The notes below the pieces were generated by a model. The model was given only the letters and a program-made list of their open reading frames with translations, was not told the DNA's origin and made no database searches. Made by a program: the position numbers and the translations under genes. A stretch of 64,000 nt of DNA from a virus, in UHGV virus genome UHGV-0176771, one strand, 5' to 3'. Below are positions 32,132 to 33,165 of this stretch, piece after piece; within the stretch, counting starts at the first letter, position 1, and every line of letters begins with the position of its first letter.

Positions 32132-32686
32132 CTACTCTTTTATATCATCTAATTTCAGCACATACAATTCACATTTTTCGTTATAAGAATCACCAACTGC
32201 ATGTTGAGTTTCTTCATTTGCCCTTTGAAATCCAAGAGATTTATAGAATCTGATACCCTGATCATTGTCTGCGTCAACAAAAACAATTATACCATATATA
32301 GCAATTATTTTTGAAACAGTAATGATTTTTGGAACAATATAGTCTGTAAATAGAACTGTTCCGACACCACTACCTTGAATACCATATTCTACAGCAATAC
32401 GTGAAATTTCTACAACAGGCAATGCTGTGTATTCGTCAATGCATTCATCATATGTATGTATTGCATTGGCTTTGACTGTATAAAAAGCTAATATACTTGT
32501 CTTATCTTTGTCTAACAAAATATATGTATGACCCTGTTTATCTTCCGCATAGTCAAAGGAATTATCTGATAAAAAAGTATTTAATGGGTCATCTGCTCCA
32601 CAACAAAAATCTCCAACAAGCGTAAAATGTGTATTGGATTCTCTTGTTAAAAGCTCTTCAACACATTGATTCGAAAGATCGGTCAT
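32132..32686 (-). CDS. GNAT-family acetyltransferase, TacT/AtaT/KacT-like toxin candidate (184 aa)
   Basis: Acetyl-CoA-binding motif RIAVEYGIQGSGVGTVLF (R/Q-x-x-G-x-G/A) and a downstream FYKSLGF motif. It forms a 4-nt ATGA overlap with a small upstream partner gene. Confidence 0.75.
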   Translation of the reverse strand: MTDLSNQCVEELLTRESNTHFTLVGDFCCGADDPLNTFLSDNSFDYAEDKQGHTYILLDKDKTSILAFYTVKANAIHTYDECIDEYTALPVVEISRIAVEYGIQGSGVGTVLFTDYIVPKIITVSKIIAIYGIIVFVDADNDQGIRFYKSLGFQRANEETQHAVGDSYNEKCELYVLKLDDIKE

Positions 32687-32889
32687 CTGTTCTTTTCTCT
32701 CAAGAATTTTGCAATAGCAGAACTTGCATTTTCCCTATCTGTGGTAGTCGCTGGAATAAATTTACTTTTCTTAAAATCATCTACGATTTTAGTAGCTGCC
32801 TTCCCTTTTAATAATGGAACAATAGCCTTTGAAACAGCCATATGTTTCCCCTCCTTTGTATGTATGGATACTTTTTTACCTAACTTCAT
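32683..32889 (-). CDS. Putative RHH/DUF1778-like antitoxin (68 aa from MKLGKKVSIHTKEGKH...)
   Basis: Small basic protein directly upstream of, and overlapping, the GNAT gene. RBS AAGGGGTGA. An N-terminal beta-strand followed by a helix is consistent with a ribbon-helix-helix fold. The track ORF start (32916) is probably too far upstream. Confidence 0.5.
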   Translation of the reverse strand: MKLGKKVSIHTKEGKHMAVSKAIVPLLKGKAATKIVDDFKKSKFIPATTTDRENASSAIAKFLREKNR

Positions 32890-33165
32890 ATAATCACCCC
32901 TTAGTATTTGAAGCAATTATACATTAAAAAAATTGAACAAAATGTCGAAATATAACGTGAGAAATAAATTAGACTATTTTTTGTGTATCTTATTATACAT
33001 TTTTTATTAAATTTGTTCAACCGCTAGATATAGTGCGGGAAAATAAAAAACACACTAATTATATAAATTTTTCCTATATATAGTTGTTTTCTCTATATTT
33101 AAAATATCTCTTGTGTTTTTGAAAGGAAAAAAATATTCTATATTATTTGTTTCCACAACATTACA

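Follow-up and report, generated by a model that had tools for sequence, protein, structure and literature searches.

The locus considered here raises the question of whether an acetyltransferase gene lodged in the tail module of a virus, together with the small gene that runs into it, constitutes a toxin–antitoxin (TA) module, and if so, of what kind. It lies in a 64,000-nucleotide stretch of the virus genome UHGV-0176771 (hereafter the window), whose carrier appears to be an SPbeta-like temperate phage of gut Clostridia/Lachnospiraceae, with the pair placed in a putatively hypervariable island between two tape-measure ORFs. An earlier note had likened the two genes to the TacAT/AtaRT/KacAT modules, with an RHH-like antitoxin preceding a GNAT toxin that acetylates aminoacyl-tRNA. 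This likeness survives in part: the similarity to the toxins and the antitoxin-first overlap hold, whereas the proposed antitoxin family does not.

Layout and mobility of the cassette

Both ORFs are on the minus strand of the window, with the small ORF directly upstream of the GNAT gene (Table 1), and minus-strand bases 32686–32683 read ATGA, placing the stop of the small ORF over the GNAT ATG as had been described. The 184-aa GNAT indeed carries the reported acetyl-CoA motif, RIAVEYGIQGSGVGTVLF, which spans residues 96–113 and includes QxxGxG. From its ATG the small ORF (32683..32889) yields a 68-aa product with a pI of 10.4, and from a TTG at 32916 one of 77 aa; of the earlier description as a 68-aa basic protein, the basic character stands, while a length of 52 aa is more likely than 68.

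Table 1. Positions of the cassette features in the window
Feature	Position	Strand	Remarks
GNAT acetyltransferase gene	32132..32686	-	184 aa; TacT/AtaT/KacT-like; acidic (pI 4.4, net charge -17)
Small partner gene, probable 52-aa core product MAVSKAIVPLLKGKAATKIVDDFKKSKFIPATTTDRENASSAIAKFLREKNR, basic	32683..32841	-	Invariant Met and GGAGG SD
Possible N-terminal extension of the small gene, 16 codons, MKLGKKVSIHTKEGKH, giving the 68-aa form	32842..32889	-
Terminator-like hairpin, 10-bp stem, 5-nt loop	32115..32139	-	Directly after the GNAT stop
Second AATAGAAGAGTAG copy, weaker hairpin	32055..32067	+	A mosaic breakpoint between related phages falls here
Promoter-like site TTGAAC-17-TATAAT	32992..33020	-	Consensus match only; some 100 nt ahead of the small gene
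Second promoter candidate TTGACT-16-TATAAT	33237-33264		11/12 consensus match
Conserved mobile block (upstream non-coding region, small gene, GNAT, terminator)	32102..33842	-	blastn

The description of the pair as a moron within an island that interrupts the tape-measure gene is upheld by the flanking ORFs, which match separate parts of a single tape-measure model, phrog_4211—ORF 33780..36008 matches positions 556–945 and ORF 21979..28899 positions 1024–2416. An intron or ribozyme behind the split tape measure was considered and set aside, a search of 27.5–37.5 kb against Rfam at E ≤ 1 having returned two chance-level matches and no more. The motif claimed to recur around the pair does so: the window contains four exact copies of AATAGAAGAGTAG where 0.13 would be expected, and none of 100 shuffles reached five matches at one mismatch. 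Its disposition differs from the tandem hairpins that were said to flank the pair, in that both nearby copies (32055 and 32110) lie on one side, downstream of GNAT, the copy on the + strand at 32110–32122 forming the 3' arm plus the tail of the post-GNAT hairpin. The idea of the motif as a homing-endonuclease insertion site was also discarded; in relatives, the GIY-YIG insertion lies some 100 nt off the copy at 38366.

Comparisons by blastn with related phages (L040–L043) show that the block 32102..33842 is common to them at 93–97% identity while their downstream island cargo differs, with the homology blocks stopping at window position 32102 (L040–42) or 32057 (L043). In natural alleles that have lost the GNAT gene, the terminator-like hairpin stays next to the small gene. 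An autonomous moron within a low-GC variable island, the cassette brings its terminator and candidate promoters with it, is lower in GC and has mosaic boundaries. Promoter-like sites in the AT-rich region (26 vs 19 expected) are not significantly enriched, and the operator-like palindromes at the candidate promoter are just AT-rich low-information repeats. An identical GNAT protein is indexed for 291 collection blocks, and some of the 24 contigs that were read exceed 1 Mb, which implies a prophage state.

The acetyltransferase, its relatives and its charge

The GNAT matches Pfam Acetyltransf_1 (25.2 bits vs a cut-off of 20.7) and the phage family phrog_1758 'acetyltransferase' (1e-25). Its 15 best sequence matches in the PDB are all toxins of the AtaT/TacT/KacT/GmvT type, at 6e-9 to 4e-4 with the single sequence and at 1.8e-12 to 6e-9 with the family profile, and are followed by PaiA (2e-5) and RimI (1e-3). 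The same TA toxins account for the 38 best Foldseek matches of its AlphaFold2 (AF2) model (pLDDT 79.6, pTM 0.76), at 6e-11 to 7e-8 with TMq of 0.62–0.74, and the next neighbour is the N-terminal acetyltransferase Naa60 (4e-7). Against the NCBIfam rimI model (TIGR01575) it scores 26.1 bits vs a cut-off of 86.4, and against PRK09491 12.3 vs 173; the other NCBIfam matches, to MshD (25 vs 163 bits), ArsN1 and PaiA, are weak and fall far under their cut-offs. Thus, the solved TA toxins are the nearest relatives of the GNAT in both sequence and predicted fold, well ahead of RimI, PaiA and Naa60; its grouping with toxins rather than RimI-like housekeeping enzymes, as first proposed, is supported by the PDB sequence search, Foldseek and the rimI model alike. 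Matches in a viral structure library were to generic GNATs alone; none was stronger than 1e-6, a long way short of the bacterial TA toxins. Among the phages of INPHARED, no DNA similarity was found, and the protein matches are distant (24–31% identity) KacT/TacT-like genes of P1-like phage-plasmids and others, with nothing closer; the defence-system models of PADLOC-DB v2 gave no match at E ≤ 1 for either the GNAT or the small protein.

The relationship extends to the active site. The loop Q104-G105-S106-G107-V108-G109 of the GNAT aligns with Q103..G108 of AtaT, and a residue-by-residue mapping pairs AtaT F30 with F38, Y85 with Y86, R95 with R96, Q103/G106/G108 with Q104/G107/G109 and Y144 with Y148. 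These include the gate residues F30, Y85 and R95 and the catalytic tyrosine (AtaT Y144/KacT Y145), whose roles have been described (PMC7595197). The residues underlying toxicity and catalysis in AtaT are retained in 22–23 of the 23 GNAT family members, and an N-terminal FxCG...L..FL motif is common to the GNAT and the AtaT-type toxins. Peculiar to the family is a C-terminal helix-strand in which N169, E170, C172, L174 and Y175 are invariant.

Outside the catalytic pocket the resemblance breaks down. The GNAT family is acidic throughout, an unexpected feature that the earlier note did not raise: all 23 members have a pI of 4.2–4.9 and a net charge of -9 to -20, as against a pI of 8.7–9.2 in the two DUF1778-linked toxins for which it was computed. 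The basic AtaT residues H34/R37/R40 are replaced by N42/D45/E48, with the R37 and R40 positions acidic in 19–21 of 23 members; AtaT R71 corresponds to T78, and the alpha3 lysines K79/K81/K82 fall inside a 6-residue deletion. Hence, on residue mapping and pI together, the basic alpha1/alpha3 residues that dock the tRNA acceptor helix are missing, which weakens the inference that the enzyme acetylates aminoacyl-tRNA. The alpha-amino group of aminoacyl-tRNA is the target that homology would suggest; as the AtaT-like basic docking surface is absent, we regard it as a doubtful substrate, if one still to be reckoned with. The charges of the pair are opposed, the partner carrying +3 to +13 in most members. 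This polarity is the reverse of that in most type II TA pairs, which combine a basic toxin with an acidic antitoxin.

The small partner and its coupling to the acetyltransferase

Where the small gene begins is best judged from its relatives. A Met encoded at 32841, which would start a 52-aa form, is invariant in 89 homologues and has AAAGGAGGGG ahead of it at a spacing of 8 nt; a GGAGG-type Shine–Dalgarno sequence (SD) is found at the same place, 6–9 nt upstream of this internal Met, in 11 of 11 diverse homologous loci. In the window this SD (GGAGG at 32854–32850) lies within the 16-codon extension, and gene callers give 52–53 aa in many relatives. The upstream ATG at 32889 has its own SD-like AGGGGTGA, and 8 of 12 loci offer an in-frame start further upstream that is served by some form of SD. 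Thus, the internal Met is probably the start, being better supported than the 68-aa form, which is possibly also made.

A family of 168 proteins at E ≤ 1, devoid of a Pfam match or an informative name, gathers around this partner, and a profile search of 1.84 billion representatives recovered 88 clusters at 50% identity. Conservation of the small ORF at the protein level extends across 45–100% GNAT identity, and the invariant positions of its product (M17, S20, A22, P25 and L27) crowd at the N-terminus. Judged by these profiles, the partner is a new, undescribed, coherent and conserved family. Its predicted helix-loop-helix module is also found fused to other domains (DUF1653 and others), and in the two fusion loci examined (P0178 and P0196) the module stands, with no adjoining GNAT, among phage genes, which for P0178 form an early-gene region; the function of the module may therefore exceed its pairing with the GNAT.

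The identification of this protein as an RHH/DUF1778-like antitoxin finds no support in Pfam, the PDB, hhalign or AlphaFold. Pfam returned nothing for the small protein of the window at E ≤ 1 or for 16 members at E ≤ 10, NCBIfam gave no match, and sequence and profile searches of the PDB gave nothing significant (best profile E-value 0.5, to unrelated proteins). Alignment by hhalign of 89 partner sequences with 7 DUF1778 sequences reached a probability of 0.2% (E 0.28), the sole aligned stretch placing partner helix 1 (LLKGKAATKIVDDFKK) on the start of the KacA toxin-binding region (VLNEQSWSLVMEAITQ) without significance. A likeness of helix 1 to KacA/AtaR seen by eye in the same register had been entertained as DUF1778 homology and was dropped on this probability. 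The partner has 52 aa vs 88–99 aa in the solved DUF1778 antitoxins, and its putative strand segment, AVSKAIV, with a single basic residue and no GxS/T turn, differs from the RHH strands known in KacA, AtaR and TacA. No RHH, HTH or DUF1778 domain was detected by Pfam in 10 longer matches to the partner profile, of which one is a DUF1653 fusion, one a ToxN-fragment chimera and the rest without a confident domain. DUF4065 likewise found no Pfam match in the partner or 16 homologues, and a protein of 52–68 aa appears too short for such a domain.

Structure prediction, which had been proposed as a check for the RHH fold, yielded instead a disordered N-terminus and two helices. In the AF2 model from the 89-sequence alignment (pLDDT 70.7, pTM 0.30), residues 1–29 are coil, with pLDDT below 55 over residues 1–20, and helices at 30–41 and 49–67 are separated by a 7-residue Pro-containing loop; the monomer model lacks any strand and found no match in Foldseek, although an RHH strand would pair in the dimer only. 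The predicted helix-loop-helix resembles in size and architecture the 36–46-aa antitoxin fragments crystallised with toxins.

In every full locus examined, across 12 independent lineages that span 45–100% GNAT identity, the small gene directly precedes the GNAT at -11 to +2 nt, whether in phage tail islands, in the Bro-N region of a prophage or on a plain chromosome beside AraC and glycosidase genes, the last (L005) without phage genes; one Faecalimonas MAG carries two diverged copies of the pair (L013 and L014). A GNAT without the small gene was never found among the full loci examined. The small gene without the GNAT does occur: in 19 contigs (L037–39) a precise deletion of the GNAT joins it to the terminator, 5 further contigs (L050) also lack the GNAT, and a fusion remnant of the small gene without GNAT (P0033) has 86 member sequences. 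Thus, the pairing is real, obligate and coupled, and the partner-only alleles together with the lack of GNAT-only loci constitute a TA-like asymmetry. A recombinant partner (P0037) joins a window-type N-half to an L001-type C-half and stands beside a GNAT of the L001 type (98% to L001, 72% to the window), so that the C-terminal helix of the partner tracks the GNAT type.

Competing explanations and known systems

Toxin homology, the catalytic residues, obligate pairing, coupling, mobility and partner-only alleles together favour a TA-like reading, in which the cassette would be a translationally coupled two-gene moron with a new partner family and the small protein its neutraliser, a proposal that we place at about even probability. 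It is probably a variant of the known TA type with a non-RHH partner. The downstream gene would encode an acetyl-CoA-dependent GNAT with the active-site architecture of TacT/AtaT/KacT, and the upstream gene a basic, largely disordered protein of 52 aa (possibly 68 aa) without a DNA-binding domain, which would bind the acidic GNAT directly and keep it inactive, folding on binding into a helix-loop-helix whose C-terminal helix might set partner specificity. Were the small protein lost or depleted, the acetyltransferase would be set free, and the cassette might thereby serve prophage addiction or the exclusion of other phages; toxicity, neutralisation by binding and such a role are what we infer for it. 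Also in favour are the complementary charges, the two diverged copies in one MAG, the recombinant partner, the cassette's own signals, the implied prophage state and the published GNAT homologues with short upstream ORFs. Weighing against are a partner unlike any known antitoxin in the searches made, the want of a PADLOC model for either protein, the uniform acidity and changed tRNA contacts of the GNAT, the reversed polarity, and the occurrence of the partner module away from a GNAT. Inter-phage conflict, with immunity held without the toxin, is suggested by the partner-only alleles, which occupy the same phage hot spot.

The same acidity and loss of docking residues around a retained catalytic pocket could also befit an enzyme–partner pair that is not a TA system, an explanation we consider rather unlikely. 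Here the TacT-like site would acetylate a non-RNA alpha-amino group—e.g., the partner's own N-terminus (Ala-Val-Ser after Met removal), another basic protein or an aminoacyl-nucleotide-like small molecule—or the partner would be an activator or adaptor, its basic nature supplying the positive surface missing from the acidic enzyme. Conservation in the partner is highest at the N-terminus, which is extended and unstructured in the model, as would be expected of a segment that enters a GNAT peptide cleft; however, an inhibitor would also show a pseudo-substrate N-terminus, and this conservation does not discriminate. N-terminal acetyltransferases (Naa60) are the structural neighbours after the toxins, but the 15–38 closest characterised relatives are all toxins; and while the partner module in other fusions without GNAT speaks for a role beyond neutralisation, the precise GNAT deletions and the lack of GNAT-only loci are more readily squared with neutralisation than with the partner being a substrate or activator. 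Put in evolutionary terms, a TacT/AtaT-type site might have been re-purposed in the Firmicute/phage lineage for a non-tRNA target, acting on or through the small basic partner, a conjecture we hold with low confidence. Such re-purposing could take the form of acetylating the partner N-terminus or another basic protein, or of using the partner as a nucleic-acid-binding subunit. In a milder version, the GNAT may be a genuine toxin with a new antitoxin family lacking a DNA-binding domain, and the partner-only alleles may be immunity against the GNAT of rival phages.

A counter-defence or host-takeover acetyltransferase acting on a host protein, with the small protein as cofactor or regulator, would have a parallel in the anti-CRISPR AcrVA5, which acetylates Cas12a; it would suit the position in a phage variable island beside other accessory cargo, the acidic surface (if the target were basic) and the match to phrog_1758. 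We nonetheless deem it improbable, given the same pair on a plain chromosome and twice in one MAG, the generic and distant matches in the viral structure library as against the TA toxins, and the partner-only alleles that it leaves unexplained. Gene order, overlap and toxin similarity would all fit a canonical TacAT/AtaRT/KacAT module with an autoregulating DUF1778 RHH antitoxin and a tRNA-acetylating toxin, as would the placement of partner helix 1 by hhalign had it been significant; the short partner free of DUF1778/RHH in every search, its AVSKAIV segment and the lost tRNA-docking residues make this very improbable. Scarcely credible, too, is a housekeeping or resistance acetyltransferase (RimI-like, polyamine or aminoglycoside) behind a chance upstream ORF, for which the weak NCBIfam matches to rimI, MshD, ArsN1 and PaiA could be adduced: all are far under threshold (rimI 26 vs 86 bits, MshD 25 vs 163), and the small ORF is conserved as a protein, with an invariant start and SD, in a family that numbers at least 88 clusters at 50% identity.

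GNAT toxins are now defined by a DUF1778 partner, with one validated DUF4065 exception, and to these the cassette adds a candidate new partner family. Abundant in human and animal gut phages, it could decide whether 'orphan-clade' GNATs preceded by short ORFs are genuine TA systems. If the 52-aa partner neutralises the toxin, it would show how little antitoxin suffices; and with the catalytic pocket kept and a tRNA-docking surface of opposite charge, the family offers a natural experiment in substrate recognition. If the re-purposed reading were true, this would be a new functional class, a GNAT-plus-peptide module rather than a tRNA-acetylating TA.

Among known systems, RimI/RimJ/RimL and the Naa-type enzymes share the chemistry of alpha-amino acetylation by a GNAT and are much less similar to the present enzyme than the toxins are (RimI at 1e-3 vs toxins at 1e-12). 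MccE acetylates aminoacyl-nucleotide analogues, and we know of none among these enzymes or MccE that is paired with a small overlapping upstream gene. Nearest are the type II GNAT/DUF1778 systems of Enterobacteria, AtaT-AtaR, KacT-KacA, TacT-TacA and GmvT-GmvA, with the same antitoxin-first bicistron, overlapping or abutting, and a GNAT of about 175–185 aa with the FxCG...L..FL motif, QxxGxG loop, gate residues and catalytic Tyr in common; the C-terminal antitoxin fragments of 36–46 aa crystallised bound to those toxins (6gtq, 7ak9) are about the size of the predicted partner. In contrast to them, the partner here is about half the length, without DUF1778/RHH or detectable homology, and the GNAT has a pI of 4.4 vs 8.7–9.2, alpha1/alpha3 basic tRNA contacts turned acidic or deleted, and a family-specific C-terminal helix-strand. 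The host lineage is Clostridia rather than Enterobacteria, and GNAT toxins have been reported as almost absent from Firmicutes (PMC9177977). A precedent for swapping DUF1778 for an unrelated antitoxin exists in VcaA-VcaT, a GNAT toxin with a DUF4065/Panacea antitoxin (PMC9177977), from which the present partner differs in having no DUF4065 match. Bikmetov et al. 2022 described GNAT-toxin homologues outside the DUF1778 ('true TA') clade preceded by short upstream ORFs without a DNA-binding domain, and left open whether such bicistrons are TA systems with unidentified antitoxins or have other functions (PMC9177977); the arrangement they report is precisely the one met here. Against those 'divergent short ORFs', the partner described here stands out as a coherent family with obligate pairing, partner-only alleles and a location at a phage hot spot.

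An acetyltransferase gene and its overlapping partner

The GNAT acetyltransferase gene and the short ORF directly upstream of it share an ATGA at 32686-32683, the minus-strand junction reading ...AAC AGA TGA, with the GNAT ATG made up of the last A of the small gene's AGA codon and the TG that follows. The segment RIAVEYGIQGSGVGTVLF (GNAT residues 96-113) includes the acetyl-CoA loop QGSGVG, and the products lie far apart in charge, the small protein being basic (pI 10.4) and GNAT acidic (pI 4.4). The overlapping pair of a GNAT with an acetyl-CoA motif and a small basic ORF, as described in the earlier note, thus agrees in coordinates, overlap, motif and charge.

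Features of the cassette and its surroundings in the window
Feature	Position	Strand	Remarks
GNAT ORF	32132..32686	minus	184 aa
Small ORF	32683..32889	minus	68 aa from ATG; 77 aa from TTG at 32916
154-aa ORF	31534-31998	minus	phrog_33355 (unknown function), 1.5e-15; just downstream of cassette terminator
9-bp hairpin, then T-run	33167-33193	minus	within the 860-bp upstream stretch
742-aa ORF	33780-36008	minus	phrog_4211 positions 556-945
2306-aa ORF	21979-28899	minus	phrog_4211 positions 1024-2416
AATAGAAGAGTAG copies	32055, 32110, 38366, 60516	plus	a further copy with one mismatch at 13944

By sequence and predicted fold, the enzyme is a toxin-type GNAT. Its score against Pfam Acetyltransf_1 is 25.2 bits, above the cut-off of 20.7, and in PHROGs its match is phrog_1758, "acetyltransferase" (1e-25). 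[quoted passage not shown] When an AlphaFold model (pLDDT 79.6, pTM 0.76) was compared with the PDB by Foldseek, the best 38 matches were all TA GNAT toxins (6e-11 to 7e-8, TMq 0.62-0.74), with Naa60 next (4e-7); among viral structure predictions it matched only generic GNATs, at 1e-6 or weaker. Against the NCBIfam rimI equivalog the protein reaches 26 bits versus a cut-off of 86. The PDB, Foldseek and rimI results alike place it with the toxins rather than with RimI-like or other housekeeping acetyltransferases, and the earlier reading of the enzyme as toxin-type is supported. The protein was also aligned explicitly to AtaT, KacT and TacT2 and read against mutational data that assign AtaT residues to acetyl-CoA binding, catalysis and the active-site gate (PMC7595197). 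These residues are retained in 22-23 of the 23 family members, F30, Y85, R95, Q103/G106/G108 and Y144 of AtaT corresponding to F38, Y86, R96, Q104/G107/G109 and Y148 in the window.

The small partner family

The partner is clearly a real gene. Its family comprises 168 proteins at E<=1 in a 90%-identity cluster database, all without a Pfam domain or a name beyond "hypothetical protein"; in a separate search of 1.84 billion representatives it makes up 88 clusters at the 50% identity level. A literature search found no paper describing the family. M17, S20, A22, P25 and L27 are invariant in 89 sequences, and a GGAGG-type Shine-Dalgarno sequence lies 6-9 nt 5' of the invariant Met in 11 of 11 diverse loci. 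Since the amino acids encoded by the Shine-Dalgarno bases vary among loci over a constant GGAGG, it is the ribosome-binding site that is conserved at the nucleotide level, which points to a 52-aa peptide, starting MAVS at 32841, as the most likely conserved product; the start chosen in the earlier note is probably wrong. A longer isoform from the upstream in-frame start (ATG at 32889 in the window) is possible, since 8 of 12 loci have something resembling an SD there.

This partner is no antitoxin of the RHH/DUF1778 kind. In Pfam, NCBIfam, PADLOC and the PDB the window protein had no match, its sole match being a weak, non-significant one in PHROGs (phrog_12447, unknown function; E 0.01). With a 16-member alignment the PDB search was also negative (best E 0.5, to unrelated proteins), and Pfam brought up neither RHH nor DUF1778 at thresholds as loose as E<=10. 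Profile-profile comparison of the 89-member alignment with seven DUF1778 antitoxins (KacA, AtaR, TacA-type chains taken out of PDB alignments and, for phage Cyrano, the antitoxin adjoining its KacT-like gene) gave a probability of 0.2% over 16 columns. The AlphaFold model of the 68-aa form (89-sequence alignment; pTM 0.30) has a disordered N-terminal part, helices at 30-41 and 49-67 and no strand, and Foldseek found no match to it; the model is of a single chain, and the RHH strand pairs only in a dimer. In contrast to the KacA, AtaR and TacA strands, the candidate strand segment, AVSKAIV, has only one basic residue, and a long, Pro-containing loop joins the two helices. The RHH-like antitoxin once proposed is thus given up on the Pfam, profile and model results, while the other half of the supposed TacAT-like module, its toxin-type GNAT, is kept on the PDB, Foldseek and residue evidence.

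The helix-loop-helix of the partner (L..G.AA.S...TL..SK.KPY[ST].E.R) is found in fusion proteins too, joined to DUF1653 or to an uncharacterised domain on its N- or C-terminal side (proteins P0178, P0196, P0202, P0208, P0180, P0194, P0217 and P0229; loci L044-L047). In the two cases examined, P0178 and P0196 (loci L044-L047), the fused module sits among phage genes—an early-gene region with YopX, Bro-N and DnaB for P0178—and no GNAT adjoins it; such fusions would fit a function as anti-toxin decoys, or a broader one. P0185, a 97-aa predicted protein, combines a small-protein homologue with part of a ToxN (type III toxin); probably the cassette adjoins a ToxIN locus in that genome, or the gene call is chimeric.

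A mobile cassette within the tail module

The pair behaves like a module. Wherever a locus examined has a full GNAT gene, the small gene is its immediate 5' neighbour (spacing -11 to +2 nt), an arrangement seen in 12 independent lineages (45-100% GNAT identity), be it in an island after a PhageMin_Tail tape-measure ORF (many viral contigs), in a prophage region with Bro-N/ANT genes, or in plain chromosome, where a GGGtGRT protein lies on one side and an AraC regulator, accompanied by glycoside hydrolase and MFS genes, on the other. One Faecalimonas MAG carries two diverged copies of the pair.

GNAT-less alleles that keep the small gene are seen at loci L037-L039 and L050 and in proteins P0033, P0035 and P0039. 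On the 19 contigs of L037-L039, similarity to the window covers the small gene (32877-32694, 97%) and resumes at the terminator (32140-32004), the GNAT ORF having been cleanly deleted; in L050 (5 contigs), a Peptidase_M78 gene follows the small gene, with no GNAT; and P0033, with 86 member sequences, joins the small protein to the final nine GNAT residues. Among the loci examined, the small gene occurs alone and GNAT does not, the asymmetry that a toxin-antitoxin relationship predicts, and the partner-only alleles may be immunity-only alleles. A hint about partner specificity comes from a single natural recombinant, P0037, with a window-type N-terminal half and a C-terminal half of the type found at locus L001: its adjoining GNAT is L001-type (98% identical to L001, 72% to the window).

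The phage, which has YomU/YomV tail tube genes and an SPP1-type holin, is SPbeta-like. Contigs that carry it measure 60-225 kb, and at least one exceeds 1 Mb, the last implying a prophage state. Genome matches point to Lachnospiraceae, Faecalimonas and other Clostridia of gut samples; in the assembly collection, 291 blocks list a GNAT protein identical to that of the window. The tape-measure protein seems to be divided between two ORFs, which cover successive parts of phrog_4211, with an island of low GC between them (28900-33780, 4.9 kb; 25-31% versus 33-41% in flanking tail genes), in which Rfam found no intron or ribozyme. Relatives have the same split, some with further interruption (404 aa + ... 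+ 238 aa in L037 and L043). The stretch 28900-32100 is hypervariable among otherwise 90-97% identical phages (L001, L037, L040-L043, L050); relatives' cargo at the island includes Trypsin_2, DUF3800, DUF6338, Peptidase_M78 (ImmA-like), a zinc-ribbon protein and several ORFans, and the whole looks like an accessory or defence-gene hot spot within the tail module.

The cassette, called a moron in the earlier note, is an autonomous, mobile one: the block 33842-32102, comprising 860 bp of non-coding DNA, the small gene, GNAT and the terminator, is common to related phages at 93-97% identity, and their downstream cargo differs. The 860 bp between tape-measure stop and small gene (32917-33780) has no convincing ORF and no Rfam match and contains two promoter-like sites. 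In relatives it is 92-97% conserved and moves together with the cassette; L037 lacks 32878-33159 of it. The 154-aa ORF follows GNAT in L001-L004 and is absent from L040-L043, and hence lies outside the module.

The motif AATAGAAGAGTAG has four exact copies in the window versus 0.13 expected. Those at 32110 and 60516 form one arm of a hairpin, the former a 10-bp, terminator-like hairpin beginning directly after the GNAT stop; those at 32055 and 32110 coincide with mosaic breakpoints, homology to related phages stopping at 32102 or 32057, at the motif-bearing hairpins. The recurrent motif is therefore real, but it does not flank the pair as had been supposed, both nearby copies being downstream of GNAT. 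A GIY-YIG/NUMOD homing-endonuclease gene (243 aa) in L040-L042 is inserted at the end of the DUF1064 gene (window 38473-38494), a site at which the window and L043 lack it; AATAGAAGAGTAG was rejected as its insertion site.

Substrate and place among known systems

Strong acidity marks the whole GNAT family, with pI 4.2-4.9 and a net charge between -9 and -20 in all 23 members; pI values of 8.7 and 9.2 were computed for two DUF1778-linked toxins. Mutation of the AtaT residues entering the acceptor-helix groove abolishes toxicity (PMC7595197). H34, R37 and R40 (alpha1) of AtaT correspond to N42, D45 and E48 in the window, the R37/R40 positions being acidic in 19-21 of the 23, R71 corresponds to T78, and K79, K81 and K82 (alpha3) fall within a 6-residue deletion. 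As read from the alignment, GNAT keeps the toxin catalytic pocket but loses the known tRNA-docking surface. In pairing an acidic enzyme with a basic partner, the cassette also has the opposite polarity to most type II systems. On these grounds tRNA is only one possible target, and acetylation of aminoacyl-tRNA is a possible but rather doubtful activity; the substrate may instead be some basic protein, the conserved N-terminus of the partner itself or a small compound of aminoacyl type, or the partner may supply the positive surface.

The most likely mechanism, at about even odds, is that the small, disordered, basic partner would directly neutralise a TacT-like acetyltransferase in a mobile moron. 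The main rival, in which enzyme and partner form a non-toxic pair with a substrate other than RNA, is less likely; the acidity and lost docking residues speak for it, the closeness to toxins and the asymmetric loss of GNAT against it. The significance would be greater if the acidic GNAT had a non-tRNA target, or if the partner-only alleles were inter-phage immunity genes.

GNAT-toxin homologues outside the "true TA clade" have short upstream ORFs without DNA-binding domains, for which the authors allow either a TA function with unrecognised antitoxins or some other role (Bikmetov et al., PMC9177977); the same paper notes that GNAT toxin homologues are almost absent from Firmicutes and reports one validated antitoxin replacement, DUF4065. 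Phage-borne, abundant and clearly bounded, the cassette fits best as an example of this class outside the clade, with a coherent new partner family. AtaRT, KacAT, TacAT and GmvAT remain its nearest systems functionally and structurally: it resembles them in GNAT fold, catalytic residues and gene organisation, and departs from their GNAT and DUF1778 pairing in the antitoxin and the tRNA-binding surface.
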